Source: Marinobacterium iners (GTDB lineage Bacteria > Pseudomonadota > Gammaproteobacteria > Pseudomonadales > Balneatricaceae). Taken from it: a DNA stretch of 32,000 nucleotides. The position numbers and the translations under genes are program-made. The stretch is taken from NCBI RefSeq assembly GCF_017310015.1, contig NZ_CP022297.1, forward strand, positions 806,774 to 838,773, given 5' to 3'. The notes below the pieces were generated by a model. The model searched no databases and was not told the DNA's origin. It saw only the letters and a list, made by a program, of their open reading frames with translations. This document shows positions 423 to 17,512 of the stretch, piece by piece. Position 1 is the stretch's first letter. Each line of letters begins with the position of its first letter.

Positions 423-1340
423 TCAGTTTGCTTCTGCAATTCCTTCTGCTATTCTTCTTATCTCTTGGGCGAAACGAATTCTATCATCGAACTCATACCT
501 GTTTTTTTCTCCAGTTATCACAACCTGTTTTCCTTTTTCGACTACATCATATCCTACAGATGAAAGCTGTTTCGAAATAAATAAATACAAAATCGTTTGG
601 TTGTTTTCATTAAGTATGCGGCTGTAGAAAGAATCGTTATACGCCATGATTCTCTTTATTGCATCGATTAAATCAGAAGGTTGAAAAAACTTATCTTCTA
701 TTTTTTCAATAATTTCTCTTGGCGAAACTTGATCGCCTACAATATTTATATGCTGTTTGAGATATTCTAGAGCGTCATGCCTTTCATCTCTGATAAGGTT
801 AAGTGCAAAGTTTTGTATGTCCTCACTTTTGCCATAGTGCTTTTCCAGATAAAGACTGAGTATCCTTTTCATCAGCCTTCCATCTTTATCAAGATAGTTT
901 TTTTTACAGGCTACTGCCATATACCTATCTGCAAGGTTTCTGGATAACTGATTTAGTCTTTGGTGATATTCACTCATCATTGGGCAGTACTCTGTAAGTA
1001 CTTCCCACTTTTCTTGGCTTTCAAAATTGCTAGTTGTGATTGTTTTTGGAGGGGTTTCTTTTTTAGAGTGTTCAGTCTTTTCATTCTGATTCGTTGATAT
1101 CGGGTTTTCACTATTAGATTGCTGTATTGATTCTTTTTTCTTATAAAAAATAAGGCCTAAAATAAAAGCAATAGGGCTAAAAATAACTAATCCACCAATA
1201 AATCTTAAAATGGCCATTGCAAACTCGCCTGAAAAATCAGGACCATTAATTGCGTAAAGTACTTTAAAAAAATTATAAGCAAAATATAAAAAGTTTATTG
1301 TCCAAACATATCTAAATCCATTTTTAGTTCTTTCACTCAT
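423..1340 (-). CDS. Two-TM membrane protein of unknown function with a soluble C-terminal domain (possible abortive-infection-type cargo)
   Basis: 305-aa ORF. The N-terminal ~65 aa hold two hydrophobic segments (INFLYFAYNFFKVLYAI and AILRFIGGLVIFSPIAFILGLIFY). A polar linker and a ~200-aa domain follow, with no motif I recognise. The gene is conspicuously AT-rich compared with all its neighbours. Confidence 0.65.
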   Translation of the reverse strand: MSERTKNGFRYVWTINFLYFAYNFFKVLYAINGPDFSGEFAMAILRFIGGLVIFSPIAFILGLIFYKKKESIQQSNSENPISTNQNEKTEHSKKETPPKTITTSNFESQEKWEVLTEYCPMMSEYHQRLNQLSRNLADRYMAVACKKNYLDKDGRLMKRILSLYLEKHYGKSEDIQNFALNLIRDERHDALEYLKQHINIVGDQVSPREIIEKIEDKFFQPSDLIDAIKRIMAYNDSFYSRILNENNQTILYLFISKQLSSVGYDVVEKGKQVVITGEKNRYEFDDRIRFAQEIRRIAEGIAEAN

Positions 1341-1393
1341 TTTAAGTCCCTCTTTATAAAATATAGTGCCATGCGAGTGTATTCTTTATAACT

Positions 1394-2668
1394 TCAGATA
1401 TTAAAATCCTTCTCCACCAGCCGCCCAGTCGTATTATCCATCCGATACCGGATAATGCTGCCGTCTATAATACGCTTCACGACTTCCCGTGCGGTATCCA
1501 GCTCTACATCGAACCACTCACGGGGGCGATAGGTGCCACCGTCACGGCTGTGCAGTGTCACGTTCACTCGCTGGTTATGTAGCATGGCATGGATCAGTCG
1601 TTCAAAGCGGTGCGGGTCCAGGTTGTAGCAGTCGAATGACGCCACCACCTTTACCGGTGCTTCAAGGTAGGTCTGCTGGCGCTCGGCACCGGCCAGACGC
1701 TTGTCCAAGTCCTTTTCGGTGTAGCCTATTTTGTGCAGGTGCCGTACCTGCCGCAATACCGGGTCATGGCTCAGCGAGCGCAGAATATAGATGATGCCGG
1801 TTTGCTGGTCTTTGTGGGTCAGTCCTGCAAGGCCATTCAGGGCTTTATCCTGCTGCAGGATGCGGCGACCGGTTTCGTCCTTGTACAGTGCCCGAGCCAG
1901 CGAGCGCAATAGCAGGTTGGATTCAGTCCCGTTGTCGAATACTACGCGCAGCCTAGGGTTAAACTTGGTGCCGGCGCCTACACTTTCCTTGCCGACCTGA
2001 TCGGCGATACAGATCATGCCATTGAGGATGAACATATCGCCTTCATCAATCTGCGACTCTTTTTTGAAGGGTACGGTTTCAGCACCGCCGTTGCGTATGG
2101 CGTCACGGACTTCATCAAACAGGCGCTCGAAGCGGTAGAAGTCGTCACAGACTGTGCGCTTGGCAATCTCGTCCGGGCGCTCCTTTTCTTCAGCCTCGCT
2201 CACATGCGCCATATCAAAGATGGATTCAGCTTCAGCATCCACTGACAGCAGGCCCAAGGGGTCGCTCTCGAGTATGTCATCCAGTGAACTTACATCGTCT
2301 AACCCGGCTGCTTCAGTCACGCAGGCAGGCGGGTGTGTGCCAATCTGTCCGTCAGTGTCTGTGCTGGCGCTCAATAACCTGAGACTGTCATGTTGCGCCA
2401 GTCTGTCCAGGTGTTCAGGATTGGCTCTGATGGCGGCCAAGCGCACGGCTAGGGTGGCTTCCTGCAAATCTTCAGCGTCTTGGTCAGGCTCCCGCCCGTT
2501 TTCACTCACAAATACTTCAACAGCCTTAAAACCACTCAAAAGGCGCTCATCCGCCGTGGGTGCTGATGCCCGTGAAGCCGTTACATTGAGCAGGCCCAAG
2601 GGATCATCACCGGAAAAAATATCATCCAAGGTGCGCCTGGCCGGTCGCTCACGGCGGGTGCGAATCAT
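1394..2668 (-). CDS. T5orf172 / MUG113 (GIY-YIG-like) domain protein, putative nuclease
   Basis: 424-aa ORF. The C-terminal ~110 aa (GIIYILRSL...LHKIGYTEKDLDKRL...PHRFERLIHAMLHNQRV...PREWFDVELDTAREVV) fit the T5orf172 pattern as I know it. The N-terminal half is acidic and low-complexity with two LDDI-x-DPLGLL-V motifs. The start overlaps the helicase stop by 4 bp (2665-2668). Confidence 0.8.
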   Translation of the reverse strand: MIRTRRERPARRTLDDIFSGDDPLGLLNVTASRASAPTADERLLSGFKAVEVFVSENGREPDQDAEDLQEATLAVRLAAIRANPEHLDRLAQHDSLRLLSASTDTDGQIGTHPPACVTEAAGLDDVSSLDDILESDPLGLLSVDAEAESIFDMAHVSEAEEKERPDEIAKRTVCDDFYRFERLFDEVRDAIRNGGAETVPFKKESQIDEGDMFILNGMICIADQVGKESVGAGTKFNPRLRVVFDNGTESNLLLRSLARALYKDETGRRILQQDKALNGLAGLTHKDQQTGIIYILRSLSHDPVLRQVRHLHKIGYTEKDLDKRLAGAERQQTYLEAPVKVVASFDCYNLDPHRFERLIHAMLHNQRVNVTLHSRDGGTYRPREWFDVELDTAREVVKRIIDGSIIRYRMDNTTGRLVEKDFNI

Positions 2669-4746
2669 GCGGTGGCTCCTTTCATCCGCTCACGTTTCTT
2701 CTGTTGAATATAGGCCAATGCTTCGGCATAGCGTACTTCCATTTGATCGTCACTGGTCACGGAAGGTGGTCGGCCCTTCTGCTGAACAAAGGCATTGATG
2801 CGGGGCCAGAGAATCACCGCTTCCTCTTCAGTCATCTGGGTACGCTTGCTGACAACGACATCCTGAATGGTCTTGAGTACCGGTGCGGTCAGCGCCTTGG
2901 ACAGAATCTCGTAGGCGCCCTGGAAGGGGTTGATCTGATTGATAAGGTCGATGTTCAAGTGTTCAATGTTGACGAACTTGTCACCTATTTTGAGGAACTG
3001 ACGTCCGCCACCAGCACTGCCGGTATCGATGTTATCTTCATCAGCCGATTCACCTGGTCGCTGATCGGGATTGACGGCTTCACCGGCGGGCTGCGTGTCG
3101 TAGCGACCGTCTGGTTCCAATATCTGTGCGCCGTCTGGCAAGTCCTCTTCATTGAACAGGCCACCGGTGGCGCGTGCCTGCATAGTGGTCAGTACGGTTT
3201 CACGCAGCAGTTCCCGTTCGCCTTCATCTAAATCAGGGTGCAGTCGCTCTATGACCTTGGGTATCTCGGTCTGATTAATCACTTCAGGTTCAGTGGACTC
3301 AGTGACGGCCGCAGCGGCTACTTTGGGTTCCTGCAACAGGGCGGCAATAATGTCCTCCTGCCCACCGGACTGCAGAATATCCATCACCTTTTGAGAAACC
3401 GGTGCGGCCGTGTCTTCGATTACGACTGTGCCTGGCTCAACCGTTTCGTCGGGCTTCATACGAGAGCGGGGCTTGAAGTTGATGCTGGGCGCCAGCACTT
3501 GTTCCATCAGCAGGGAAACAGTAATCGCCTTGAGCAGGTTGTTGACGCTGTTCTGCACGTCTTCATCTTCGGCATCAGGCTGGGCGATCAGGTTGGTGAA
3601 TTGAGCGTGTGTTTTACCTTCGCTGTCACGTGTTGCACGGCCGATGATCTGGATAATCTCGGTCATCGAGTTGCGGTAGCCGATGGTCAGCACATGCTCA
3701 CAGTAGGGCCAGTCAAACCCCTCTTTGGCCATGCCCAGGGCGATAATCACATCCACATCATCCCGATGGTTTACTTGGCGCAGGTATTCCTGAATGTGGG
3801 TGCGGACAAGGGTATCCGTTACCAGGTCGGCAACCTTCAGCAGGCGACCAGATGAGTGACGTACAGTGATAATGCCTGTTTTGGCATCCTGATCTTCGAC
3901 CTTGCCCAGCGCATCCAGAATGTAATCCACTTCACTGTACTTATCAGTGGTGCTCTCGCCGCTGTTGCGATGGGGAATGTGAACAATGGTTTTGCGTTCC
4001 GGGTCCAGCACTTCATGGATGGCATCCAGATAGCTGCCCTGATAGAAGTGATAGCCGATCCCCAATGACTTCAGGTAACGGTAGCCATTGAGCTGTTCAT
4101 AGTAGGTATAGGTCACTTTATCGAACAGGGCTTCATCGTCCGGCAGCAGGATAGGGGCTGCATCACCTCGGAAGTAAGAGCCGGTCATGGCAATAATATG
4201 GGCGCTGGATGATCGTATCAGGTCATCAATCAGGGCGCCCAGCCGGTTGTTTTCGTCAGCGGACACATGATGGAATTCATCAATCGCCACCAGACAGTCG
4301 TTGAAGTCGACAGGGGTGAGTTTGTCGAAGGCAAAGCGCAGGGTCGCGTGAGTGCAGACCAGTGTCTTGGCAGCGGGGTCTTTCATAAAAGCACGGAAAG
4401 CGTCTACCTTGCCGCTGTCATTGCCGGCACGGCAAAGGTCATGCCGGCTTTCAACGTGCCAATCCCATTCAAAGCCATGTGTGGTAAGGTCGGTGTCCTT
4501 GAAGCTGGCGCCGATGGATTTTTCCGGCACGGCAACAATCACCTTGCGTAGCCCCTGGCGATTCAGCTTGTGCAACGCCAGGAACATCAGCGCCCGTGAT
4601 TTACCTGATGCCGGTGGTGCCTTGATCAGCAGGTACTGGCTGTCTCGCTTGGCATAGGCGCGGGCCTGCATCTCCCGCATTCCTTGTGCGTTACTGCTGG
4701 CGCTTTTACCGTTGCGTGCGTACTCGACCTTGATCAACTCGGCCAT
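2665..4746 (-). CDS. SF2 DEAD/DEAH-box (ResIII-like) helicase with a long acidic C-terminal extension
   Basis: 693-aa ORF. Walker A is APPASGKSRA, motif II is DEFHH, motif III-like is MTGS, and motif VI is QIIGRATRD. The last ~240 aa are not helicase-like: acidic and low-complexity, then a conserved-looking helical tail. Confidence 0.9.
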   Translation of the reverse strand: MAELIKVEYARNGKSASSNAQGMREMQARAYAKRDSQYLLIKAPPASGKSRALMFLALHKLNRQGLRKVIVAVPEKSIGASFKDTDLTTHGFEWDWHVESRHDLCRAGNDSGKVDAFRAFMKDPAAKTLVCTHATLRFAFDKLTPVDFNDCLVAIDEFHHVSADENNRLGALIDDLIRSSSAHIIAMTGSYFRGDAAPILLPDDEALFDKVTYTYYEQLNGYRYLKSLGIGYHFYQGSYLDAIHEVLDPERKTIVHIPHRNSGESTTDKYSEVDYILDALGKVEDQDAKTGIITVRHSSGRLLKVADLVTDTLVRTHIQEYLRQVNHRDDVDVIIALGMAKEGFDWPYCEHVLTIGYRNSMTEIIQIIGRATRDSEGKTHAQFTNLIAQPDAEDEDVQNSVNNLLKAITVSLLMEQVLAPSINFKPRSRMKPDETVEPGTVVIEDTAAPVSQKVMDILQSGGQEDIIAALLQEPKVAAAAVTESTEPEVINQTEIPKVIERLHPDLDEGERELLRETVLTTMQARATGGLFNEEDLPDGAQILEPDGRYDTQPAGEAVNPDQRPGESADEDNIDTGSAGGGRQFLKIGDKFVNIEHLNIDLINQINPFQGAYEILSKALTAPVLKTIQDVVVSKRTQMTEEEAVILWPRINAFVQQKGRPPSVTSDDQMEVRYAEALAYIQQKKRERMKGATA

Positions 4747-4775
4747 TGTTCAGCCCTCCCTGGTTCAGTGTTTGG

Positions 4776-5084
4776 TTAGTGTGATGCCGCCTGTGTCAGG
4801 TCGTGGAAGTGGATTCCGGTCGCTCGCATTACGGCCGTCATGGTACGCAGTGTGGGGTTACCCTTAGGTGACAGGGCACGGTACAGGCTTTCCCGAGACA
4901 CCTTGGCCCGTTCAGCAATTACGGTCATGCCGCCCTGTGCCTCAACCACATGGCGCAGGGCGATCAGAAAGGCAGATTCGCCGCCTTCTTCGTCCAGTTC
5001 GTCAAACGCTGCACGCAGGTACTCAACCGCCATGTTGGGGTCGGAACGCAGCATCTCGATTACAGCATCGTCATGGTTTTTCAT
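4776..5084 (-). CDS. HTH antitoxin (addiction-module antidote protein, HigA-like; TIGR02684-like from memory)
   Basis: 102 aa. LRAAFDELDEEGGESAFLIALRHVVEAQGGMTVIAERAKVSRESLYRALSPKGNPTLRT is the typical antidote-protein HTH. There is a 4-bp ATGA overlap with the upstream toxin gene. Confidence 0.85.
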   Translation of the reverse strand: MKNHDDAVIEMLRSDPNMAVEYLRAAFDELDEEGGESAFLIALRHVVEAQGGMTVIAERAKVSRESLYRALSPKGNPTLRTMTAVMRATGIHFHDLTQAASH

Positions 5085-5422
5085 GATTCTATTCTCTCTC
5101 GATAATCCGCCAGAAACGCTTTAGCCTGGGTGATATCCTGCTGTTGGCGTTTTTTGCTGCCACCAATCAGCAGTAACACCCGGCGTTCGCCAATATCGGC
5201 GTAATACACTCGATAGCCGGGGCCATAGGTAATACGCAGCTCCATCACGCCTTCACCAACGGCTTTGGTATCGCCGGCATTGCCCAGCGCCAGTCGGTTG
5301 AGGCGGGTCAGCACGCGCATGGCCGCCTGAATATCCTTTTTCTTGGTGGCATCGAGCCATGCCTGAAAAGGGTCATGGCCATCGCTGGTCAGGTAGTGCT
5401 TTAGCTCAATCATATCAATCAT
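5081..5422 (-). CDS. RelE/ParE-superfamily toxin (addiction-module killer protein; TIGR02683-like from memory)
   Basis: 113 aa. FQAWLDATKKKDIQAAMRVLTRLNRLALGNAGDTKAVGEGVMELRITYGPGYRVYY is the characteristic killer-protein core. The gene is paired with the antitoxin just downstream. Confidence 0.85.
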   Translation of the reverse strand: MIDMIELKHYLTSDGHDPFQAWLDATKKKDIQAAMRVLTRLNRLALGNAGDTKAVGEGVMELRITYGPGYRVYYADIGERRVLLLIGGSKKRQQQDITQAKAFLADYRERIES

Positions 5423-5465
5423 TGTAGCTTGAAAGCTACGTCAGTGCCTATGCAGGTGAGGCTAT

Positions 5466-8210
5466 TCAGTCGCTGGATGTGCGCCGCCTTGCGCGGGTCT
5501 TGGCGTTACGCTGTTCCGCTTCAATTAAAGCTTCATAGCGTGCCAGCAAGAACTCCTGCCGCTCGGCCGTATCACGGAAAGGGCGCTCTCGGTACAGGTG
5601 CTCTACTGCACGGTCGAGTGCCTGGTGTGCCTGCAGTAGATCGTCCGGCATTTTGTCGGGATCGTACATCTGCGCCAGCGTTTTGTCAGGGTGCGCACCA
5701 CGGGCGAGGATTATCTGCCTGCCCAACTTTTCAATGGCGCTGCGCTGGGTATTGCTGGCGTCAGGCCAAGGGAAGGTGTTGTAAACCAGCGTGGCCGAAT
5801 AGCGGTAGTCGCTTTTGAGCCGGCCGCCGACCAGCCGCAACCAGTCCATGTGCATCTGGGTGGACAAGATTGCTAACTCGTAGAGAGTGCCATTGGGGAT
5901 GGTTTGTACGAGGTCAGTGACTATTGTTGTTCCATCAAAAATGCCTACAGGGCTGTAAACCCTTCTCTCTGAGGTAACACGGGGAACGAGGATAAAGGTG
6001 TCTGGATTATTAATATCACGGAACTGGTGTGGTCTTTCAGCCAGTTTATGGGCGCCAGCATCGCGGCTGGCAAGGCGCATCTCCTTGACATCTTCAACAC
6101 GCTTTTTCACCAGAGGCATGGCGTCAATGTCGGATTGGTCTGCACCCACTAACCATAGACACCAGCGCTCTTTGCCCTGCAGAAACTCTTGGGCACCAAG
6201 GAGTTGTCTGATCCACTTCGCGGCTTCAGGCTCAGTCAGCAACAACTGATTTTTTTCCTCTGTAGAAAGAATCAGGTGTCCGCCATCAAGTGGCTTATTG
6301 CCATAAACCATAGCTGCACAGGGTAATAACGGATGGCGGCGACTGCCCACTACAACGTTACCAGCTTCAAGCAGGTATGGACTGATATTAACAACCTCCC
6401 GCAGACGCCACTGGCTATCCAACTGCTGATAAAGGCGCTTGGACTCAGGTTTGGAACAAAGGCCAATGATCACCACATGAACACCGGCATTGCCTTGGGC
6501 GCTGTTCTTCCAACTGAAGGTTTGGTACGCAAAGGCTATCTGAACCTGCAGATCCAGTATGGCTGGCCAGAGCATGGCCACCTGCTCGCCCTGGCAGATT
6601 GAGTTGGTTGCCACCAAGGCGATTTGACCGCGTTGGCGGATATACTGTGCGCCTTTCCAGAAAAAGCTTGCCACATAATCCAGATAACGGTGTTTCTTGA
6701 ACCCGGCAAATACCAGATCCATATCGGCGTTTTGTACTGCAGAGCGATAGGTGGCCCCTCGGAATGGTGGATTGCCGCATACAAACACCTCGGCCTCGCC
6801 ATCATTCGGGCATACCGCATTCCAGTCCATACGCAGGCTGTTACCCAGTACCAGATGGCCGTAGTCCTTCAAGGGCAGCAGAGGTTCCGCATGGCCGAAC
6901 TCCTTGGCAAACAGGGTATTCATCTGGTGCTCAGCCAGCCATAACGAAAGCTGTGCGATCTCATGGGCTGCGTCATCAATTTCGATGCCGTAGAACTGGC
7001 TCAGACGGATACCGCTCATGAAGAACTCATTTTGCTGCATCTGCATTGCGTTCTTCAGGTTGACGGCCTGCAGCTCACGTAAAACCGCCATCTCCAATCG
7101 GCGCAGCTCCTTGTAGGCGATGATCAGAAAGTTGCCTGATCCCATTGCCGGGTCGAATACCCGAATTCGGGTCAGACGCCCCAGCAGGGATTCCAGTTTC
7201 TTGCGCTGGCCTTTGGCGCTGTCCAGGCTGGCATAGAGGTCATCCAGAAACAGTGGTCGTATCACCTTCATGATGTTGGGCACGGAGGTATAGTGCTGGC
7301 CCAGGCTGTCACGACTTTCCTCATCCACAACCGCTTGGAACATCGAGCCGAAGATATCCGGGTTTACTGCTTCCCAGTTGAGCTGGCCGCACTCGATCAT
7401 CATGCGCCGTGCTCTGGCGCCAATGGTGGGCATTGGCAGGTCATCGCTGAACAGGCCGCCATTAACGTATGGGAACTGGCTGATGTGCGCCGGCAGGTCG
7501 GCAGGGCGGTCTGACTCAGGCTGGTTCATAATTGTGAATAGCTGCGCCAGCAAGGCTGGCAGGTCGTCGCCGCTGTCGCTGCTGGCCTCAGTGATTACAC
7601 GCGTGAAGGCGCCAGATTTGAAAATGCCGGTGTCTTCGGCGAAGTAGCAGAACAGCAGACGAGTCAGAAAAACGTTGAGCGCATGGCGCTGTTCAGTGGT
7701 TTCAAAGGCATTGTGTTCCTTGAGGCGATCAAACAACCGGCCCATCTTGGCGGCTGCCTTGAGGTCCGCTGATGCCTCCTCAAAGTGCTTGGTGCGCTCC
7801 AGCCCCGCCATTGGTGCAAAGAACAGGTACTGAGTGGCCAGCTTGTCGAAGTCCACCTCGAGCCGTTCATCTGTGCGGGTATCCAGAGCCGTGATTTCAC
7901 GGTGGTCCGTGACCAACAGAAAGCGGCATTTGTGCCGGCGTGGTTCGTCATCGTCGGCGAGTGCCTGTTGGGCTTCATGGATGCTTTCACCATCACGCAC
8001 CGGCATGAAGTACAGCCAATTCTTCAGCGCCACATGGCCGTCTTCCTTACGAGATGCCACATTGCGCTGCCCATTGTTGCGCACCTGGGTGATCGTTGCT
8101 TTGGGGAAACCGTAAGCGTCAAGAAAGGCGAATATGAACTCACCGGGATCAGCGCCTGCAGCGGTGGCAGCCGTGAGGGTGTTCATACAGTAGGTCTGGT
8201 CGAAAGCCAT
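5466..8210 (-). CDS. MmeI-family (type IIL/IIG, PglX-like) gamma-class N6-adenine DNA methyltransferase with target-recognition domain; N-terminal nuclease motif apparently not conserved
   Basis: The ORF is open to 8300. I prefer the Met at 8210 (MAFDQ...) or 8186 (MNTLT...). SAM motif is FDPAMGSGNFLI and the catalytic NPPF lies at 6762-6773. Long blocks are collinear with MmeI as I remember it (LTRLLFCYFAEDTGIF, FPYVNGGLF, IFGSMFQ...LGQHYTS, YRYSATLVYNTFPWP, MYDPDKMPDDLLQAHQALDRAV). Confidence 0.9.
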   Translation of the reverse strand: MAFDQTYCMNTLTAATAAGADPGEFIFAFLDAYGFPKATITQVRNNGQRNVASRKEDGHVALKNWLYFMPVRDGESIHEAQQALADDDEPRRHKCRFLLVTDHREITALDTRTDERLEVDFDKLATQYLFFAPMAGLERTKHFEEASADLKAAAKMGRLFDRLKEHNAFETTEQRHALNVFLTRLLFCYFAEDTGIFKSGAFTRVITEASSDSGDDLPALLAQLFTIMNQPESDRPADLPAHISQFPYVNGGLFSDDLPMPTIGARARRMMIECGQLNWEAVNPDIFGSMFQAVVDEESRDSLGQHYTSVPNIMKVIRPLFLDDLYASLDSAKGQRKKLESLLGRLTRIRVFDPAMGSGNFLIIAYKELRRLEMAVLRELQAVNLKNAMQMQQNEFFMSGIRLSQFYGIEIDDAAHEIAQLSLWLAEHQMNTLFAKEFGHAEPLLPLKDYGHLVLGNSLRMDWNAVCPNDGEAEVFVCGNPPFRGATYRSAVQNADMDLVFAGFKKHRYLDYVASFFWKGAQYIRQRGQIALVATNSICQGEQVAMLWPAILDLQVQIAFAYQTFSWKNSAQGNAGVHVVIIGLCSKPESKRLYQQLDSQWRLREVVNISPYLLEAGNVVVGSRRHPLLPCAAMVYGNKPLDGGHLILSTEEKNQLLLTEPEAAKWIRQLLGAQEFLQGKERWCLWLVGADQSDIDAMPLVKKRVEDVKEMRLASRDAGAHKLAERPHQFRDINNPDTFILVPRVTSERRVYSPVGIFDGTTIVTDLVQTIPNGTLYELAILSTQMHMDWLRLVGGRLKSDYRYSATLVYNTFPWPDASNTQRSAIEKLGRQIILARGAHPDKTLAQMYDPDKMPDDLLQAHQALDRAVEHLYRERPFRDTAERQEFLLARYEALIEAEQRNAKTRARRRTSSD

Positions 8211-8517
8211 GAAGCGTGCGTCCTGCGTGTAGCGTATATATGACAGACAACTATAGCCGCTTGGGCAGAGAGGGGGTAGGGGTGGTGCCATCCTTGGCAC
8301 CGTAATCAGTGCAGTCTTGTCCTCAGCCAGGTGTTGGCAGCAAAGCGACCTGCATTGTCACGCTGGCGCTTTGTGCCGGTGGTGAATGTCATAAGCGGCC
8401 ACCAATGCTTATGCCCGTCTTGTGACACTAGTCAGTCAGATATTAACCAGCTCGGTGTATTTGAACGCTTCCTGAAGCGGTTGCATCTGTAGTGGCCTGA
8501 TCGTCTTGCGCGTAGGG

Positions 8518-8595
8518 GTGTTTCCTTCGCTGGTAACAGTGTTTCCTTCGTGCGCGTGAGCCTGTTAACTTCGGTGTTAACCACTACCTGTTAAC
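8518..8595. repeat. Two families of short direct repeats: GTGTTTCCTTCG x2 and TGTTAAC x3
   Basis: GTGTTTCCTTCG occurs at 8518-8529 and 8539-8550 (21-bp spacing). TGTTAAC occurs at 8563, 8575 and 8589 (12- and 14-bp spacing). Confidence 0.8.
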
Positions 8596-8602
8596 GCTGC
8601 GG

Positions 8603-8785
8603 TGCGCACCTGAATGCGTACCAATTTTGTGCGCACTTCCCTGCGTACCTTGGTGCGTACCTTGCCCGGTTGGTTTGCACTCTACTGCGAACCTGAAGCC
8701 GCGAACCTCAATGCGAACCTTGCTCGCTGTGCCGGTCGGTACGAACTCCAATTCGTACCAAACTTGTTCGAACCTCTGTTCGTAC
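8603..8785. repeat. Iteron-like phased array of about 13 octamers, T(G/T)CGNAC(C)
   Basis: Copies start at 8603, 8615, 8630, 8642, 8654, (8675 degenerate), 8686, 8700, 8712, (8739), 8752, 8767 and 8779. Spacing is mostly 11-15 bp. The core drifts along the array from GCGCAC/GCGTAC to GCGAAC to TCGTAC/TCGAAC. Confidence 0.8.
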
Positions 8786-8947
8786 TTTCAGCCCTTATCG
8801 TTTTCGCTGGGGCCACAACCTTTCGATAGCTGGCGCTGATCTGTACTCGACCAGCCTTCGGATTGTTCATCCTCCATTGGAGGTTAGGGTCAGCAGGGTG
8901 GACGTTTTGTCCACCCCTCGATCATGGTTGGAGTCGGTCAAGCTGTC

Positions 8948-9066
8948 GGTGGGGTGTCACGTTTCGTTACCCCCTTCGAGGTCTGGTGTCGTGCTTTGCG
9001 ACTCCAGCCTGAATCTACCCAATATCGGGATCGTTCGATGGGGTATCGCATTTCGCTACCCCCTTC
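8948..9066. repeat. Pair of ~30-bp direct repeats, TGGGGT-TC-C-TTTCG-TACCCCCTTCG
   Basis: 8948-8977 (tggggtgtcacgtttcgttacccccttcg) and 9037-9066 (tggggtatcgcatttcgctacccccttcg) lie 89 bp apart. A degenerate third copy sits near 9105-9125. Confidence 0.7.
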
Positions 9067-9726
9067 GTTGCCTGATCCAGCGCCAGCAGGTCGATAGCGG
9101 GATTCCGCTACCGGGGCAGCCATTACGGGGCGGGCAACAGCTCCGGCGGTCAACGGTGCGCCAGTGGGTACGATTCAGCGCCAGCGAATTACAGGTTGAT
9201 AGCTAATAACAATGACGATTCTTGCAACCTGATTTCAGGCATGGTTTTTGATATACCCTGTTCGCCTCGCTATACGGTTGCATTGCCCTGCAACAATCAA
9301 GTAATAAGCAAAAGCCGTGCCCATGATATTTTTCTATCAATGTGCCGGTCGCCTGCAACGCTCAGTATTGTTCATGGCAGGTATGGCTGTGGTGATTGGT
9401 GCGAGCCTTTCATTCTGGCCCTGTGCGGTGCGTTCGTCTTTGATCCATGCGCCAGCATACCCGCAACAGAACGGCGCTCTGGTCGCTTCCTGATACCGCT
9501 CCCCATTGGTGGTTAGGCATTTGGTAACTCCCTGCGGCGTAGGAGGTTAATCGGCTGCTGAATGATGGCCTGATTAACTTCCCCCATTGGGGGGAGTTGG
9601 TATGCGCAAGCATCTACGCTCCCGAAATATCGGTAACGTCCTCAATCTGAGGAAGTTGGTTCCGGGCTTTTACCCCATTGGGGGGGAAAGGCACTGCTGA
9701 ATAATCAGCAGTCGAGATCGGCAGCA

Positions 9727-9815
9727 GGTGTGTTGCTGGTGTGTTAGAAGGTGTGTTGCAGTATCGCTCAATGCGGAATGGCTACAGGCTTCCGGCATGT
9801 TGATTGGTGTGTTGG
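9727..9815. repeat. Four copies of GGTGTGTT(G/A)(C/G), three of them at 11-12-bp spacing
   Basis: ggtgtgttgc at 9727, ggtgtgttag at 9738, ggtgtgttgc at 9750 and ggtgtgttgg at 9806. Confidence 0.7.
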
Positions 9816-9961
9816 CTGAAGTGTTACCGGAATCCCGGCATCGGTAACTCTGGAAGCTGGCGCAATATCGGCGCTGGCTCCGGGTATCCCCAAATCTGGG
9901 GAAGCCCATTCGGATTTCAAATCTTTGTGGGATCACTCATGAAAACTCAGGAACGTGGCTC

Positions 9962-10255
9962 ACCCGAAAAACCGGGTCAGTCATTCACCTGAAAAATCAG
10001 GTCAATGGATCACTACCCTTTTTGTGTAGTGATCTGCTGCGGCGCTGTTCAAAAGTAACGATTCGTTACCTTTGCGCCCAAAACTACTGTTTCGGTAGTT
10101 TTGCCTGAGTGGTAACGGTGGCGGCGTTACCTGATCGTTACCGGCTGATCCGCTGGTTGATCGGCAGGTGAAAGTTCCGGATTCACGGAACAAAGGTTCC
10201 GGCTACGCGGAACTATCCGGCAGCGCCAGCAGGTTTGTGACACGGTGTCTCAAAC
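9962..10255. promoter_or_regulatory. Dense cluster of distinct small palindromes/hairpins immediately upstream of the ADP-ribosylglycohydrolase gene
   Basis: The elements, in order:
- ACCCG-AAAAAC-CGGGT (9962-9977).
- ACCTGA-AAAA-TCAGGT (9987-10002).
- GATCACTAC-N9-GTAGTGATC (10008-10034).
- GTAACG-ATT-CGTTAC (10055-10069).
- AAACTAC-N7-GTAGTTT (10081-10101).
- GGTAACG-N7-CGTTACC (10111-10131).
- GTTCCG-N6-CGGAAC twice (10174-10191 and 10196-10213).
- GTTTGTGACAC/GTGTCTCAAAC (10233-10255). Confidence 0.6.
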
Positions 10256-10307
10256 TACCGGGATGCCGGTATTATGAAGGCAACATCAAGGGTTAGAGGT
10301 TCTGATT

Positions 10308-11246
10308 ATGTTCAGCAGGGATAGAGCAATGGGCGCACTGGTTGGGTTAGCGGTTGGTGACGCTCTGGGCGCACCGGTGGAGTTCTGCCAAAGGGGGCGT
10401 TTTACTCCGGTCACTACCATGGCAGCAGGTGGCAAGTTCAAGATGAGCCTGGGTGAATGGACCGATGATACCGCCATGGCTCTGTGTTTGGCTGATAGCC
10501 TGATTGAATGCCGTGGCTTTGATGCTCGAGACCAGATGGAACGGTATTGGCGCTGGGGTAACGAAGGCTACAACTCGACCCGTGAAAGAGCCTTTGGCGT
10601 TGGCAAGACGGTGGCCAAGGCCATGAGCCGATACCGGCGTACCGGTGATCCTTTTGCGGGCTCTGATGATCCTTTGTCGGCAGGGAATGGATCCATCATG
10701 CGTCTGGCTCCGGTCGTTCTGTACTACCTTTCCCGGCCAGATGAGGCAACCCGTTTTGCTGCTGAGTCTTCACGAACAACACACCAGGCAGAGGAGTCGA
10801 TACAAGCCTGTCAGCTGATGGCGCATGTGATGTGTAAGGCGATTCACGGCGCAGAAGAAAAGGCCGAGCTGTTTCAAAACGCTTCCCACTTGGGCTGCTC
10901 TGGGCTGATTACTGGCATTGCAAACCGGTCATACCTCGATAAGCAGGAAGGCCAGATTCAAGGCAGCGGGTATGTTGTGGAGTCCTTGGAGGCGGCACTC
11001 TGGTGCTTTGAAACTACGGACAGTTTCCATGATGCGGTGCTGAAAGCAGTGAACCTGGGGGATGATGCCGATACTACTGGCGCTGTATGCGGGCAGATAG
11101 CTGGCGCTTATTACGGCTTTGACTCAATACCACCAGAGTGGGTTGGCGATCTCATGGAAGGACAGAGAATCATTGAAGCAGCAGAGTCTCTAATCAATCA
11201 GGGAATGGAAGTTATCCAGCCCAGTGACCACAAGGGCAGCATTTGA
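10308..11246 (+). CDS. ADP-ribosylglycohydrolase (ARH/DraG family)
   Basis: 312 aa. Family hallmarks are present: ALVGLAVGDALGAPVEF, WTDDTAMALCLADSL, GNGSIMRLAPV and GDDADTTGAVCGQIAGAYYG. An AGAGG-like RBS precedes the ATG. Confidence 0.9.
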   Translation: MFSRDRAMGALVGLAVGDALGAPVEFCQRGRFTPVTTMAAGGKFKMSLGEWTDDTAMALCLADSLIECRGFDARDQMERYWRWGNEGYNSTRERAFGVGKTVAKAMSRYRRTGDPFAGSDDPLSAGNGSIMRLAPVVLYYLSRPDEATRFAAESSRTTHQAEESIQACQLMAHVMCKAIHGAEEKAELFQNASHLGCSGLITGIANRSYLDKQEGQIQGSGYVVESLEAALWCFETTDSFHDAVLKAVNLGDDADTTGAVCGQIAGAYYGFDSIPPEWVGDLMEGQRIIEAAESLINQGMEVIQPSDHKGSI

Positions 11247-12092
11247 AATGTAACCCCTGGGCTTTTACGCAGTCTGTGGAAAAGGGGAGGCGTCATCCAG
11301 TGTTCGGTGAATGTTCGCCTGGTAATCGGTGAATCAGCGCCAGCAGTGCCGCTCAGTCGCTGTCCTTTCGGGTGTATCGAATCTCCATGTAGCGGTCTGT
11401 TTCCCTGTCGTAGGTATCGAATGCCGGGAGGGTCACCGACTCCGGCTCTGGTGGCTTCTTGTGCGGCTTCAGCTTCGATTTGATCCGGCTCCAGATACCG
11501 GCCTTTGCTGATCTGTCTGTGGCTGTCATAGTGTCCTGATTCCGTTCAGTGGGTGAATGGACAGAATGCGCGAAGGCTGGCGGCAGAGCAATATCGGATT
11601 TTAAATCCAGATGGGGTAAACGGAATGAGCAATCCAACAGATAAGACGCAAGGCAAGCAGCAGGAACGGCAAGGCGGCGTGCGGTGCTTAACGCTCATGC
11701 TTCAGGATGAGGATCAGCAGCCGGTGATGAGGGAGGCCCAGATACAGGGCACCCCTGACCAGCCGCCAGAATCTGAAGCGCCAGCTCGGTAAGCAATGGA
11801 ATCTAGCCATTACCGGCTTGGTCGGATTTGAGATGCGGGTAAGATCAGCAGGTCACTCTAAGCCCTGTGGCGGGCTTTCGTGTATCCGGCAGGGCCAACG
11901 ATGGGGCCAACATTAGGGCCAACTGAAAGTGTTGCTCCTGCTGGTGCTGGTCAAGGAGGCGGTGATTTGCAGCCCCTCTGGAGCTGTTCCTGATTTAGTG
12001 CTGGCTGCGGTGCCTGGGGGTCTGATTCGGGGCACCCTTCAGACCGTTAAGCGGGTTCCATGCTGGAGCTGGTTCCAGATCGGAGCCAGTTG

Positions 12093-12485
12093 CTACAGAT
12101 CAGGCGATGGTGCTCGCTTCAGCTTCGGATCAAGTGCTGTACGCCAGTCGCTGCCTCGCTGCCTGCGCTTCTGTACCGTGCGCCACTTCAAGCCCAGTAG
12201 TCGGGCGAGGATACCGGCAGTCTCTTTGCCCTTCAGGGCGGTCTGTTCACGCCCATTGATCTTGATAACAACCTCAATGTCGAGCTGCTTGTTCCGTGAC
12301 GCCACACACTGATCCGCGTTATCTCGCATTGTGAAGCCGCTCCCGTTCGCTGGATGGTCGGTGGATATTCTATGCGGGGTGAGCTGCGTCAGCCAGTGAT
12401 CCAGCGCCAGCATACCCGGAAGGTTTGGCAGCAGCCGGGTAATGATCTGGTCATACCCAAACATGCTGCCTGTGCTCATCGTCAT
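12093..12485 (-). CDS. Hypothetical protein with a possible C-terminal HTH (island regulatory or accessory protein)
   Basis: 130-aa ORF co-directional with the replication module. The C-terminal segment ETAGILARLLGLKWRTVQKRRQRG looks HTH-like. The start is uncertain and it overlaps a competing plus-strand ORF (11929-12312), which I consider less likely. Confidence 0.45.
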   Translation of the reverse strand: MTMSTGSMFGYDQIITRLLPNLPGMLALDHWLTQLTPHRISTDHPANGSGFTMRDNADQCVASRNKQLDIEVVIKINGREQTALKGKETAGILARLLGLKWRTVQKRRQRGSDWRTALDPKLKRAPSPDL

Positions 12486-12539
12486 TACCTCATACGTTCG
12501 GGGAAGGATAGGGCCACCAGATCGGCAGCCCTGATTGGG

Positions 12540-12941
12540 TTAGTGCAGCCGCGTCCGCAGCCACGTGTTAGCAGCAAACCGTCCTGCATTGTCACGCTGG
12601 TACGATTTCAACTCAGGTGCGCCAGCAGTGGCCAGCCAGTGCGCCCGGTACTCTGTCAGCAACGCCTGCCTTTCATGCTCTGATCGGTACTGAATCAGTC
12701 CATCGATCCAAACCTGATCGTCCCATAGCAGGGGCAGATCAAGATCAGCCGCGCAGTACAGCATCATGCTTGTGTCGTTGGCAGCAGGGATGCCGCGCAG
12801 CTCATCCAGTAGTTGCTGCTTGTGTCGAGATAGCCAGTTGAGTTGATCCGGTGATAGCGGCTCCGGTGCCTGTACCTGCAAGTTATCGCCATCGGCTTGC
12901 AGGATCAGTCCGCGTTGAGCCAGGGTGTCAATCATGCTCAT
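12540..12941 (-). CDS. Hypothetical protein with a TubC-N-like docking motif, typical neighbour of P4-type primase/helicase genes
   Basis: 133 aa. The N-terminus LAQRGLILQADGDNLQVQAPEPLSPDQLNWLSRHKQQLLDEL resembles the short N-terminal domain seen next to satellite and island replication genes. It begins 10 bp after the upstream gene's stop. Confidence 0.55.
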   Translation of the reverse strand: MSMIDTLAQRGLILQADGDNLQVQAPEPLSPDQLNWLSRHKQQLLDELRGIPAANDTSMMLYCAADLDLPLLWDDQVWIDGLIQYRSEHERQALLTEYRAHWLATAGAPELKSYQRDNAGRFAANTWLRTRLH

Positions 12942-12951
12942 CTGCCAGACC

Positions 12952-14523
12952 TCACAGGGTATACTTTGCGGACTGAAGTCCTGAATGTCCTATGTCCTGC
13001 TGTTTTACCTCCTCATGCCAGGACTTAGGACTTGCAGGACTTTGATCCGGTAACTTTACCTTGATACACCAGTGGACAGCCCCGCCTATCTTGCCCATTG
13101 AGTCACACTCAATATCGAGCTGGCGCAGTGCAGGTGCTGATCGGCGCAGCGCATCGCCCAACCCCTTTGCAGACTTCGGCCAGGAATCGCAACGCTCAGG
13201 CCGGTACTGCTCCAGGATGCGCATGATCTCCTTCACCGGGGCGTTGATCTCTTTGCGGTGTTCCAGTGCCTCGATAATCGCGGTGCAGACGGGACTGCTG
13301 TCTATGGTGCGGGATATGCTTTCACGGCGGTTGCCTTTGAACAGATCGAGAAATAGCCTTTCGTCCTGGTGGCTGATCCGAGTGAGTGCCATCCCAAGGG
13401 CGCAATACTCGATCATCCGTGGCCGGTCGGCTGCATCAATCGAGATAGTCGGCAGCAGCGCCAGAGCAGCACTTGCCAGGTCAAACAGTCCACTCAGTAT
13501 GGCCGGAAGGTCGCGCTCGAAATCGGCCCACTGGTCAGCCGAAGCGGTGCGGCTCTTAATCACGGGACACTCAATGCAAACCGTCCGGTCGAGCAAATCC
13601 TGTGCCGTAACCAATGCGCTGATCCCATTCACCAGCCAGGGGCGTTGAACGCTGATAACACTCTCATCTGCATCCGAGTACAGCTTGCGCTTGGCGAACC
13701 CGCCCCCGGTAGACAGCACGCACATGGCATCCTGCATCGGCCCGGTTAGGTGGCTCAGGTTTTCGTATGCAACCAAGTGGTTGACGCCTGCACAAACAAA
13801 CACATCTTCGGTGGCCTTGGGTGCGCCTCGCAGATTGCAGCCGTTCGGGTCGATCAGTCGGCGCAGTGACTCGGACGCAGTGCTTTTGCCTGATCCTTGC
13901 TCACCGATAAGCTCCAGTCCGGGGAAGGGGGTATCCGGTCGCAGTGCATCGATCAGCCAAGCAATCACCAGTGGCCGGTCGGCAGCAGGGATATTACAGA
14001 TACGCCATAACGGGTCGAGCGAGCCGTTTGCAGCAGGGACTGGCAGCGGCTGCATTGCCTCACCACGCACAAACAGGACGCCATGATTCTCAACCACGCG
14101 CCAGCCGGTACTGCTCCACTCAATCGCCCGACTTTTGCCTGGTTCACATAGGTCCAGGTAGTAGCGGCCACCCTGTTTGGCAACTCTCAGGTTAACGGTG
14201 CGCTCCTCACCTTCAAACCGCGCCAGGGCAGCCAAGGTGCCTAACGCTTCAGTCAAGGACTGGGACTTAACGGACTTCTGTTCTTCCTGGTAGAAGCCAG
14301 CGGCCAGCCAGTCCTTGAAGGCGCGGGAGTCAAGGCGGCGCGTTTCCTGAGTGTCCTGATCCAGTGCGTAGCAATCCCGGTTGCAGTCATGGAACAGCAC
14401 AACCCTTGCCTTGGCGTATTCAACCAAGCGGTCAGCCTGGGAGCGGCGATCCTCATCCGGTTTCTGCTGTTCCGGCACCGGCATGGCATCGATCTCTTCC
14501 AGCACATCGAGATAATCACCCAT
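12952..14523 (-). CDS. P-loop NTPase, putative replication helicase/initiator of a P4/PICI-like island
   Basis: 523 aa. Walker A is LIGEQGSGKSTA and a Walker B-like motif is LVAYENLSH. Synteny is int-alpA-ZnF primase-ATPase. The start overlaps the upstream gene by 8 bp (14516-14523). Confidence 0.7.
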   Translation of the reverse strand: MGDYLDVLEEIDAMPVPEQQKPDEDRRSQADRLVEYAKARVVLFHDCNRDCYALDQDTQETRRLDSRAFKDWLAAGFYQEEQKSVKSQSLTEALGTLAALARFEGEERTVNLRVAKQGGRYYLDLCEPGKSRAIEWSSTGWRVVENHGVLFVRGEAMQPLPVPAANGSLDPLWRICNIPAADRPLVIAWLIDALRPDTPFPGLELIGEQGSGKSTASESLRRLIDPNGCNLRGAPKATEDVFVCAGVNHLVAYENLSHLTGPMQDAMCVLSTGGGFAKRKLYSDADESVISVQRPWLVNGISALVTAQDLLDRTVCIECPVIKSRTASADQWADFERDLPAILSGLFDLASAALALLPTISIDAADRPRMIEYCALGMALTRISHQDERLFLDLFKGNRRESISRTIDSSPVCTAIIEALEHRKEINAPVKEIMRILEQYRPERCDSWPKSAKGLGDALRRSAPALRQLDIECDSMGKIGGAVHWCIKVKLPDQSPASPKSWHEEVKQQDIGHSGLQSAKYTL

Positions 14524-14974
14524 TGCGCAGCACCTCCTTGATCTTGGCTACTCGTGCAACTGCCTGCTGATAGTCGGCTTGATCCTTATCGGACAGTGCT
14601 TGTCCGGCCTTTTGAGCGTTCTCCGTCATCAGGATCAGCAGCTTCAGGTGGGACATTGCATCCTCAAGACGGCGGCGCTTCCAGTCGGGCAGTCCGGCAT
14701 AGTGCGGACGGTCGGTGCGCGGGTACAGATCGGCCACCTCAAGGCCAATGGCGGCGCAAATGTCGCTGATCTCACAACCCGCAAAACAGTGCATCAGCAC
14801 ACGGCCATCGGTGGTGTCGAAGCGGACAGACAGACTCGGGCTTTTGTCCTGGTGTGCAGGGCAACAGGCCATGTAACGATCTTTGCCGGTGGGCTTTACC
14901 CTGTCGAGCCGTCCCAGCAGATCGGCGGCGGTCAGCGGGTGACGCTGGTGTGGTTGTTTGAGCGGTGCGGTCAT
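14516..14974 (-). CDS. CHC2-type zinc-finger primase-like protein (zinc-binding domain only)
   Basis: 152 aa. KDRYMACCPAHQDKSPSLSV...HCFAGC matches the CHC2 zinc-finger pattern of DnaG/P4-alpha-type primases. I see no TOPRIM or AEP catalytic domain in this ORF. Confidence 0.7.
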   Translation of the reverse strand: MTAPLKQPHQRHPLTAADLLGRLDRVKPTGKDRYMACCPAHQDKSPSLSVRFDTTDGRVLMHCFAGCEISDICAAIGLEVADLYPRTDRPHYAGLPDWKRRRLEDAMSHLKLLILMTENAQKAGQALSDKDQADYQQAVARVAKIKEVLRNG

Positions 14975-15108
14975 CGGATCAGCCCCCAGTGAATAGCGGT
15001 CACGAAAAGGATGGTCGCGGTTTCGATAGGCCAGCCGGTCAGTGCTATAATGAGCATCTGCTTGACGGCGGCGGCCTGTGTGGTGCGGGTCGCTGCTTCC
15101 TTTCTCAT
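14971..15108 (-). CDS. Possible 45-aa small hydrophobic protein
   Basis: Hand translation gives MRKEAATRTTQAAAVKQMLIIALTGWPIETATILFVTAIHWGLIR. Its TGA (14971-14973) overlaps the downstream ATG in an ATGA junction. It is too short to appear in the ORF track, so it stays speculative. Confidence 0.3.
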   Translation of the reverse strand: MRKEAATRTTQAAAVKQMLIIALTGWPIETATILFVTAIHWGLIR

Positions 15109-15119
15109 ATCACACCCCC

Positions 15120-15347
15120 TCAGGCCACACGGCTGTCAGCAATACGCGCTTCGATCCACGCATAAATCTCGCTTGCCAGCCAACCAACACTGGTGCCATT
15201 GGGGTTCAGTTTGATGGGCTTCGGGAAGCGGTCGAGGGAAATTTCACGATAGATTGTGCTGCGGCCAAGGCCGGTCAGCTCTTCCACCTGACGGCGGCGC
15301 AGAATCTGGAGTTCACGCTGTTGCAGCATTTCGGGGGTTGCGGTCAT
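15120..15347 (-). CDS. alpA: AlpA-family transcriptional regulator / excisionase-like HTH
   Basis: LQILRRRQVEELTGLGRSTIYREISLDRFPKPIKLNPNGTSVGWLASEIYAWIEARI is a classic AlpA/MerR-like phage HTH. I prefer the Met at 15347, although the ORF is open to 15362. Confidence 0.85.
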   Translation of the reverse strand: MTATPEMLQQRELQILRRRQVEELTGLGRSTIYREISLDRFPKPIKLNPNGTSVGWLASEIYAWIEARIADSRVA

Positions 15348-15857
15348 ATTGCGTCTCCTCAACCAAAGCCATCTTGCCCCTCACGTTTGGACGCTATGGG
15401 ACAGCATGAGACCGATATGGCTACAAGCAAAGCTTGACTGAACCACAAGTTCACTGATAACTTTGGCAATGTAAGTTAGGTTACTTAACATCTCTGCCAA
15501 GCAGTTAGCGGCTGCTGTGGGGAGGAAAATCGGCTCTGAAGCGCAAGCTCCAGGGCTTTTCTTCGTCTCCTGCAAAGACTTGTTGGCATTATACATACCG
15601 ATTGGGACTGTTTTTGCTATTTTTTTTGCTGCCCATCGAACCTGTGCTTTAAGAGTGAGGTTTTCTCAACCCAATAGAGGCGTTTGGAGTCGTTTCGCGT
15701 ACTTACGGGTAGTTTTGCGCCCATGGGAATATTAGAAAGTATCAAGCTGGCACCTGCCTCTTAACGCCGCGAGACTGTCACCTGCTCATCAAATCGCGTC
15801 ATCTGAAGTGTTCGTCAGGCTGATCGGCTGCCAAAGCTGGCCCCTCGATTTAAGGGG

Positions 15858-17219: not shown

Positions 17220-17239
17220 GTTGTACCCATCCCAAAGCT

Positions 17240-17433: not shown

Positions 17434-17479
17434 TTTATTTGATTTATTTTCAATAGGTTAGCAGCATTCAGTGTGGGAT

Positions 17480-17498: not shown

Positions 17499-17512
17499 CA
17501 GCCTTATATTTG

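Follow-up and report, generated by a model that had tools for sequence, protein, structure and literature searches.

A 32,000-nucleotide stretch of the Marinobacterium iners genome (contig NZ_CP022297.1, positions 806,774 to 838,773; here called the window) carries a module built from local families of short direct and inverted repeats and hairpins, flanked by the genes of an MmeI-family restriction-methylase and of an ADP-ribosylglycohydrolase (ARH). This feature is real, conserved and under selection. Its DNA, 8493-10307 in window coordinates, is non-coding, and the region is a place of cargo exchange, where islands acquire or lose genes, an insertion sequence (IS) element and small modules between the repeats. 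As to function we lean, albeit with less than even confidence, towards a cis-acting nucleoprotein region whose left arm would resemble an origin or the cis replication region (crr) of P4 and whose right-arm hairpins would act single-stranded, the whole serving also as a platform for cargo exchange.

Repeat density and coding potential

We measured repeat and hairpin density in 8213-10307 or 8493-10307, with dinucleotide shuffles as controls. Direct pairs of 7-mers no more than 60 nt apart numbered 53, compared with 8.0 ± 3.5 in the shuffles, and inverted pairs at the same distance numbered 28, compared with 6.6 ± 3.4. Hairpins were similarly in excess, both those with at least 7 Watson-Crick pairs (20 vs. 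3.2 ± 1.7) and those with at least 8 (13 vs. 1.1). Overall, local direct and inverted repeats were 4-12 times denser than in shuffled DNA; in 2-kb segments outside the 7-13 kb stretch of the window, direct 7-mer pairs ranged from 1 to 25. Folding z-scores fell to between -2 and -6 in 8500-9100 and 9500-10300, about equally on both strands, and were near 0 in 9100-9500 and in the flanking genes, so that two structured, repeat-rich arms flank a plainer centre with 43-47% G+C. An earlier account of this DNA, made from its letters alone (the sequence-only reading), had described a succession of local short-word families, direct or inverted, and every word and hairpin that it listed was found where it had been reported. 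It had also taken the density to be non-random, and dinucleotide shuffles indeed fail to reproduce it.

About ten homologues of the module were recovered, at 66-96% identity, apparently all from Marinobacterium islands at tRNA-Pro or transfer-messenger RNA (tmRNA) genes. Loci L153-L157 are metagenomic contigs reached through a 97%-identical ARH protein, L163 (from IMG/VR) and L164-L169 were retrieved with conserved 20-22-mers, and L170-L179 were retrieved through homologues of a 175-aa zinc-ribbon protein, the named relatives of which come from Marinobacterium species only. L153:816-2660 is 84-89% identical to window 8396-10012. The module copy in L170-L179 is only 66-70% identical, L170 being the most distant homologue. 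By BLAST, E. coli genomes, plasmids and phages contained no match to the region, and a genome-collection scan with the ARH protein found only ~55% relatives, with unrelated upstream DNA. In a viral collection, a triple-octamer pattern (for the octamers, see below) returned unrelated coding repeats only, and a hairpin-flank pattern returned single chance matches only. Contigs L153 and L154-L157 start or end within the module, either close to its left end or around window 9089, where strain variants or repeated copies may interrupt assembly.

The sequence-only reading placed about 2 kb without a credible open reading frame (ORF) at 8300-10300. This holds for 8493-10307 but not for 8309-8492, which consists of two gene remnants that it had not recorded; the gene-free stretch is therefore 8493-10307. 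The first remnant (8309-8407, minus strand) comprises the last 33 codons of a paralogue of the island's 133-aa gene (tblastn, 64% identity over 33 aa, E=9e-10), and 8308-8366 and 12542-12600 share 86% identity. Lying outside the repeat module, this remnant marks a recombination junction. The second (8396-8492, plus strand) is a 3' remnant, the last ~32 codons, of the 175-aa zinc-ribbon gene, recognized through a tblastn match to window 8379-8489; its ratio of nonsynonymous to synonymous polymorphism (pN/pS) among homologues is 0.18. The 175-aa gene is intact, with a ribosome-binding site, at L163:6588-7115. It is also intact in sister islands, and an intact copy is present on an M. iners contig. 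The AlphaFold model of its product is poor, with a mean confidence score (pLDDT) of 49.

That the module itself is a decayed protein-coding gene, with homologues still intact elsewhere, is highly improbable, to the point of being negligible. Such an origin could appeal to a stop-free frame of 243 codons in L166, over window 8588-9203, and to the true gene remnants at the edges of the interval originally proposed. However, a conserved long ORF is found in no homologue. Indels among homologues (85 distinct ones) show no preference for multiples of three, their lengths modulo 3 being split 27:32:26, and a period-3 substitution pattern is confined, within the region, to 9303-9392. Furthermore, blastx against all ORFs of related loci matched only orthologous non-coding DNA. 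A 587-aa gene at the module position in L153 was considered as an ancestor and rejected, as tblastn with it was negative in the window; it is an insertion. The sequence-only reading had named homologues with an intact ORF as the finding that would overturn it. Their absence, together with the shuffle control, upholds its description of the stretch as unusual, non-coding and non-random.

One small plus-strand ORF, also missing from that account, may lie within the centre. It has 45 codons (9323-9460), encodes the hydrophobic sequence MIFFYQCAGRLQRSVLFMAGMAVVIGASLSFWPCAVRSSLIHAPA, and has a pN/pS of 0.34, compared with 0.56 and 2.6 for the other two frames. In homologues it ends in TAG; the window has TAC, which extends the frame to 9493. 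No Shine-Dalgarno sequence and no family match were found for it; L154 carries a frameshifted copy, L167 has lost part of it and L170 lacks it. Whether this ORF is real seems to us about evenly balanced. A minus-strand ORF of 31 codons (9242-9150) has a pN/pS of 1.14 and is therefore not coding.

Organization and conservation of the module

The left arm begins with two copies of GTGTTTCCTTCG on the plus strand, 21 bp apart (8518 and 8539; 8518-8550), a pair with invariant columns that is kept in all homologues, including the most distant. Three conserved plus-strand copies of TGTTAAC follow at a spacing of 12-14 bp (8563, 8575 and 8589; 8563-8595). Next comes an iteron block of mixed orientation (8601-8786), with 12 exact and 2 degenerate copies of the octamer T[G/T]CGNAC[C/T]. 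The whole 32 kb contains 31 exact octamers, against 15 expected, and 12 of these are in the block, 10 on the plus and 2 on the minus strand. They are mostly direct repeats ~12 bp apart, and some are inverted with a 6-bp spacer (8-6-8 pairs). The octamer block is the best-conserved part of the module and near-invariant; three homologues share unbroken identical stretches of 51, 38 and 53 bp with it. Further along the plus strand are three left-arm hairpins (8869-8885, 8896-8916 and 8983-9007; folding z = -2.2 to -2.7) and two repeats of ~40 bp, GGGGT..TACCCCCTTCG (8946-8985 and 9035-9074), which are 80% identical to each other. The segment 9078-9187 is conserved in every homologue as shared k-mer runs; it is bounded by Chi-like GCTGGCGC octamers on the minus strand, at 9080 and 9178, and includes the hairpin CGATAGCGG-gatt-CCGCTACCG. 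The central segment (9190-9322) is lower in G+C, unstructured and variable in sequence, and is absent from L167 and L170. Between 9150 and 9350 G+C drops to 43-47%, compared with 52-59% in the octamer block.

The right arm contains CCCCATTGG(G/T)GG three times (9501, 9582 and 9673) and a set of tandem-duplicated plus-strand hairpin units, (T/A)AAC-TTCC-NNN-loop-NNN-GGRA-GTTG (9501-9712), the number of which varies between homologues. A further plus-strand hairpin, CTGCTGA-ATAA-TCAGCAG, lies at 9693-9712. Four plus-strand GGTGTGTTGC-like words (9727, 9738, 9750 and 9806; 9727-9815) come next, with an invariant run at 9720-9745, followed by an array of ~12 different short palindromes or hairpins (9823-10255) with z-scores down to -5.9 and loops that are mostly A-rich on the plus strand. 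Examples from this array, into which homologues have taken up cargo, are CACCCG-AAAAA-CCGGGT, CACCTG-AAAAA-TCAGGT and GGTAACG-N7-CGTTACC. Twin 18-bp palindromes, GTTCCG-N6-CGGAAC, 22 bp apart at 10174-10213, are conserved in most homologues, and CAGCGCCAGCAG on the plus strand (10221-10232), with a Chi-like octamer on the minus strand, forms the left junction of the ARH cassette.

The repeated words are more constrained than the DNA between them. We defined word positions from the window alone, as those covered by 7-mers repeated within 60 nt. In L170, word positions are 82% identical, compared with 61% for the rest, and the fractions retained as identical are 59% and 40%, respectively (Fisher p=1e-8). 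In close homologues the corresponding identities are 91.6% for words and 86.0% for spacers (p=7e-9). L170 also keeps the order of the words: the GTGTTTCC pair, a TGTTAAC pair, GGTGCGCACC followed by two TGCGTAC, the GGTGTGTT words and several hairpins. Homologues carry extra word clusters of their own as well (TGGATACC x3, TGGGGCC x6, GACGTAACGG x3, GTCCTGCT x3 and TACCCGAAAACGGGTA x4), and the units therefore appear to be continually duplicated and replaced.

The module holds its place in the island too. In intact islands, tRNA-Pro is followed by a 63-aa gene, the 175-aa zinc-ribbon gene, the module, cargo and minus-strand small genes, and then by replication genes, AlpA, integrase and a partial tRNA (att') copy. 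The module always stands at the end far from the integrase, after the 175-aa gene, and in L153 the same distal part is joined to a different integrase beside tmRNA. The module is thus a core feature of the integrase-distal end, common to islands that differ in integrase and in replication genes. In L163, the 175-aa gene and module are directly adjoined on the left by an inovirus-like block (L163:1253-6329), the products of which are a Zot-family assembly ATPase, a DUF2523 protein and a tyrosine integrase carrying an Int_N domain.

These patterns bear on whether the module does anything at all. It might be a largely functionless spacer in which old recombination junctions and pieces of genes have accumulated at a cargo hotspot; slippage, template switching within palindromes and small tandem duplications would then account for the echo pattern. 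The left-edge gene remnants would fit such an origin, and so would the many word families that are simple tandem duplications of 8-25-bp units differing between homologues, the frequent indels of any length, the loss of large parts in L167 and L170, the IS30-like element inside the L170 copy and the Chi-like sites, which would promote recombination. However, the same words occur in the same order at 66-70% overall identity and are better conserved than intervening DNA, the octamer block is near-invariant, and the stems of one hairpin family covary with 96% pairing (see below). In addition, at least three island backgrounds that differ in their integrases and replication genes have retained the module. 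We consider a functionless spacer unlikely.

Candidate functions of the two arms

In the nucleoprotein reading that we prefer, the left arm would present protein-binding words in series: GTGTTTCC x2, TGTTAAC x3 and ~14 T[G/T]CGNACC octamers. The octamers, at ~12-bp spacing and in both orientations, would be built like P4 ori/crr type-1 iterons and the origins of Staphylococcus aureus pathogenicity islands (SaPIs). The centre would be a lower-G+C, less structured segment, possibly with one small ORF, and the right arm a set of tandem-duplicated short hairpins acting single-stranded on the plus strand. Proteins would bind the words, and replication would be the function served, the likeliest use being an ori/crr-like site at which a replication protein is loaded and which the D5/SaPI-type helicases of the family would serve in cis or in trans. 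Packaging or transfer functions are also possible. The same region would double as a cargo-exchange site, with some junctions at Chi-like GCTGGCGC. A replication or partition nucleoprotein region was among the options of the sequence-only reading. It is best supported for the left arm, by the conservation of words over spacers and by octamers like P4 type-1 repeats; the failure of the octamers to track the island helicase, described below, speaks against it.

The closest comparison is with P4. In the P4 record (NC_001609), crr has 10 and ori 6 copies of the 8-bp type-1 repeat TGTTCACC, oriented both ways, and these repeats adjoin a different, 10-bp type-2 repeat family. The P4 crr (4291-4590) lies beside attP (4078-4097), at the non-integrase end. 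The module shares with P4 the occurrence of one octamer at least 6 times, in both orientations, within ~300 bp (here 12 exact octamers in 186 bp), a position beside att opposite the integrase end, as for crr, word spacing of about one turn and a different short repeat family adjacent to the octamers; like P4, the island also encodes a replication protein of primase/helicase type. However, the words differ (T[G/T]CGNACC in the module, TGTTCACC in P4). P4 ori and crr are ~300-700 bp with one main word, whereas the module covers 1.8 kb with more than 10 word families and a hairpin array. The island helicase is not similar to the P4 alpha protein in sequence, and the octamers do not track it.

SaPI origins consist of two sets of short iterons flanking an AT-rich segment. 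By analogy, the module has two repeat arms around a lower-G+C centre, and a 523-aa P-loop protein encoded in the window matches the folds of the SaPI5 primase-helicase, SCCmec Cch and poxvirus D5 superfamily 3 (SF3) helicases (Foldseek probability 1.0, E=1e-5 to 1e-4). Unlike the module, a SaPI origin is ~200-300 bp long and lies directly 3' of the rep gene; the module is several kb from the helicase gene, much larger, and present also in islands that have no such helicase. An origin cognate to the island's own helicase would be a candidate only.

Several observations weigh against an origin-like role. Homologues of the 523-aa helicase are mostly ~800-aa fusions with a Toprim primase domain; the protein in the window has no detected Toprim domain, and a separate 152-aa ORF with a CHC2 zinc ribbon is present instead. 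The replication module (12952-14974) looks reduced. The 523-aa protein has no sequence similarity to P4 alpha, and its gene is at least 2.6 kb from the module. L153-L157 lack this helicase, yet their octamers are near-identical (L153 has identical runs of 38-53 bp), from which it follows that the octamers do not track it. P4 ori and crr are visibly AT-rich, whereas the octamer block has 52-59% G+C, and neither DnaA boxes (TTWTNCACA) nor integration host factor (IHF) sites were found in 8493-10307. For 30 orthologous hairpins, covariation was no better than in slid controls, with 19 compensated cells vs. 24 double breaks. Large insertions and deletions are tolerated (L167, L170), so that much of the module may be dispensable, and 1.8 kb with more than 10 word families far exceeds the need of any known origin. 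Finally, a second non-coding, repeat-bearing stretch (11598-11930) lies nearer to the helicase gene than the module does. This stretch has no convincing ORF, is 91% identical in L153, L163 and L169, and contains local repeats (GGGCCAAC x3 at 11891-11923). It is an alternative candidate for the island origin or for a small RNA. An origin of the DnaA/IHF-dependent chromosome or plasmid type was rejected for the module, since neither type of site occurs in 8493-10307.

The hairpins of the right arm raise a second explanation, namely that the region is transcribed and functions as RNA, either as a structured 3' untranslated region or read-through of the 63-aa/175-aa operon or as separate non-coding RNAs. 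The hairpin arrays would then bind protein, stabilize or insulate transcripts, or act as decoys. We regard this as the main and a serious rival, though we doubt it. The evidence that bears on it most directly comes from the (T/A)AAC-TTCC..GGRA-GTTG units, which we selected by their flanks alone and which are ~26 nt long with a single 10-bp stem. In 11 distinct units 96% of cells are paired, with four Watson-Crick types at one pair and two at another, and the covariation score of 0.276, compared with 0.089 ± 0.023, was reached in 0 of 500 shuffles. A U.G pair on the plus strand, corresponding to a C.A mismatch on the opposite strand, is kept in 8 of the 11 units, all 11 have the same orientation, and the plus-strand loops of nearly all palindromes are rich in A. 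These features favour hairpins that form in a single plus strand, whether as RNA or as single-stranded DNA. Their orientation is also the direction of the upstream 175-aa gene, after which there is no convincing terminator, and the folding z-scores down to -5.9 would suit an RNA.

However, a shared orientation would result from tandem duplication alone, the same palindrome carries a T-rich loop in one homologue, and the stem counts of G.T vs. A.C (53 vs. 35) are a weak test of strand. The folding z-scores are about equally negative on both strands, and orthologous covariation is weak. No sigma-70-like promoter was found in the region or in the intact homologue, and terminators are not in excess. 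Rfam 15 gave no match at the gathering score in the whole window and, even at E ≤ 5, no family but only chance-level microRNA and snoRNA hits. In addition, the left-arm signal is word conservation in direct repeats, which is typical of protein-DNA sites, and in the window the upstream gene and promoter are lost while the module is still intact. Structured non-coding RNA had been proposed from the sequence, too; in favour of that proposal there are covarying stems in one right-arm hairpin family, and against it the Rfam scan.

The words could alternatively belong to a multi-operator regulatory hub, in which separate regulators, of the island, a helper phage or the host, would each recognize one word pair or palindrome as operator and control divergent central promoters and neighbouring cargo genes. 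Words conserved above spacers would be expected of operators, and the twin GTTCCG-N6-CGGAAC palindromes, kept in most homologues, together with a dyad just upstream of a TATTAT box before the ARH gene and several small helix-turn-helix (HTH) proteins encoded by the island, are consistent with such control. However, promoter-like sites were not found, and there would be at most one short ORF to regulate in 1.8 kb. Fourteen octamers at 12-bp spacing resemble an oligomer-loading array rather than an operator, and covarying stems are unexpected for operators. We consider a regulatory hub quite unlikely.

A further idea, which we hold to be improbable, is that the hairpin arm, perhaps with the whole module, is a new kind of single-strand-active platform on which each word or hairpin family serves a different partner. 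In one version it may be a structure-specific site of cassette capture or recombination, analogous to but distinct from the attC sites of integrons, which would explain why cargo enters at this place. In another it may offer mimic sites (resembling origins of replication or transfer, or packaging sites) through which several helper elements replicate or move the island. Like attC sites, the module hairpins have conserved outer ..AAC / GTT.. borders and variable, covarying inner stems, and lie where cargo genes come and go. However, the module units are ~26 nt with a single stem, compared with 57-141 nt and two binding boxes per arm in attC, no integrase of the IntI type is present, those encoded here having P4-type arm-binding domains, and the cargo genes are not each trailed by a unit, cassette junctions lying instead at CAGCGCCAGCAG repeats. 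An integron attC array was ruled out on unit size, the absence of IntI and junctions away from the units.

The module also resembles repetitive extragenic palindromic (REP) sequences and the bacterial interspersed mosaic elements (BIMEs) built from them, in that it clusters intergenic, imperfect palindromes of 20-35 nt with conserved flanks, varying stems and variable copy number. It differs in that REPs are dispersed in hundreds of copies across a genome and linked to a REP-associated tyrosine transposase (RAYT), whereas the module hairpins do not occur elsewhere in the 32-kb window or in the fetched chromosomal flanks, and there is no RAYT gene nearby. Two more systems were compared and rejected. 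For dif sites and the integrative mobile elements that exploit Xer recombination (IMEX; 28 bp, 11-6-11 XerC/XerD arms), there was no match with up to 3 mismatches in the window and none in the fetched loci, only the 8-mer GGTGCGCA being in common with dif. For a CRISPR or type III toxin-antitoxin array, there are only short arrays of 2-3 copies with differing units and no adjacent ToxN-like gene.

Cargo exchange and island setting

Cargo turnover around the module is seen by comparing the islands. The ARH gene is absent from L163, L167 and L169, three extra genes stand in L153 between the equivalents of window positions 10012 and 10111, and L168 has a 748-bp insertion at ~10130-10156. L163 and L167 carry an additional 62-bp module, and the central part of the module is missing in L167 and L170. 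In L170 an IS30-like transposase gene, split by assembly gaps (L170:11586-13171), lies inside the right arm of the module copy; the alternative that this neighbour is a gene for a TerS-like small terminase subunit was discarded.

The ARH cassette and the 62-bp module are bordered by copies of CAGCGCCAGCAG, a 12-mer that is found also at 11335-11346, beyond the ARH gene, and at 9078-9089. Its reverse complement contains GCTGGCGC, which has 23 copies in window 1-16000, where 2.1 are expected (~11-fold), and none in 16000-32000. The sites include 8829, 9080, 9178, 9449, 9856, 10223, 11337 and 12404, and the copies in 9000-12700 are mostly on the minus strand. Some cargo junctions coincide with copies of GCTGGCGC. 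This octamer is the experimentally defined Chi of Pseudomonas syringae RecBCD (PMC5959072), and it may act as Chi in Marinobacterium as well. Neither the Chi-like octamers nor a role in cargo exchange had been recognized in the sequence-only reading.

On its gene content, its integrase and its tRNA-Pro copy, we take the window to carry an island like P4 or the phage-inducible chromosomal islands (PICIs) with defence-type cargo. Such a context had been proposed before, and the integrase, AlpA-like gene, CHC2 zinc-ribbon ORF and SF3 helicase fold agree with it. The left neighbour of the module is the MmeI-family gene (5466-8210, minus strand), the 914-aa product of which has five of the five MmeI Pfam domains, and the right neighbour is the ARH gene (10308-11246, plus strand). 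Further right, the minus strand carries a small HTH-like gene (12093-12485), the 133-aa gene (12540-12941), the gene for the 523-aa P-loop protein (12952-14523), the 152-aa CHC2 zinc-ribbon ORF (14516-14974), an AlpA-like ORF (15120-15362) and a P4-type integrase gene (15858-17219). A 49-bp att' copy of the 3' half of tRNA-Pro (17389-17437) is 98% identical to the tRNA-Pro gene of L170, and no intact tRNA or tmRNA gene was found in the 32-kb window. This copy sits between two integrase genes (15858-17219 and 17513-18757), which suggests a tandem or composite arrangement of islands. Exact-protein look-ups of the ARH, MmeI, helicase and 133-aa proteins found no record.

The MmeI gene belongs to a block of defence-type cargo (1394-8210), entirely on the minus strand, which continues to its left with a Gp49/HI1420 (HigBA-like) toxin-antitoxin pair, the gene of a DEAD/ResIII helicase and that of a T5orf172/MUG113 protein. 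A hypothetical ORF with 34% G+C lies at 423-1340. A small RNA, sRNA-Xcc1 (Rfam RF02221, 67 bits), is present in sister islands at L153:8945-9029 and L154:7237-7321 (minus strand); the island in the window has no copy.

Further right in the window, 19386-21349 consists of a 101-bp unit tandemly repeated 19.6 times with 83% matches, in which reading frames are interrupted and repetitive. Shortly downstream of this repeat begins a type III-B CRISPR-Cas set (22080-31210), which encodes a radical SAM protein, Cas_NE0113, RAMP and Cas10/Cmr2 proteins. A repeat-spacer CRISPR array was excluded for this repeat, the whole unit being conserved. Mimicry of CRISPR repeats by the module words was rejected as well, because the nearby "array" is this tandem repeat and not CRISPR.

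Satellite-like islands are known carriers of defence genes, and here a conserved, gene-free module of 1.8 kb stands where an MmeI-type enzyme, ARH, other genes and an IS element enter or leave. If the module is an origin or loading site used in trans, this would explain the persistence of islands that lack a helicase. If its hairpins are sites of recombination or hitch-hiking, they would represent a new mechanism of cargo capture or mobilization.

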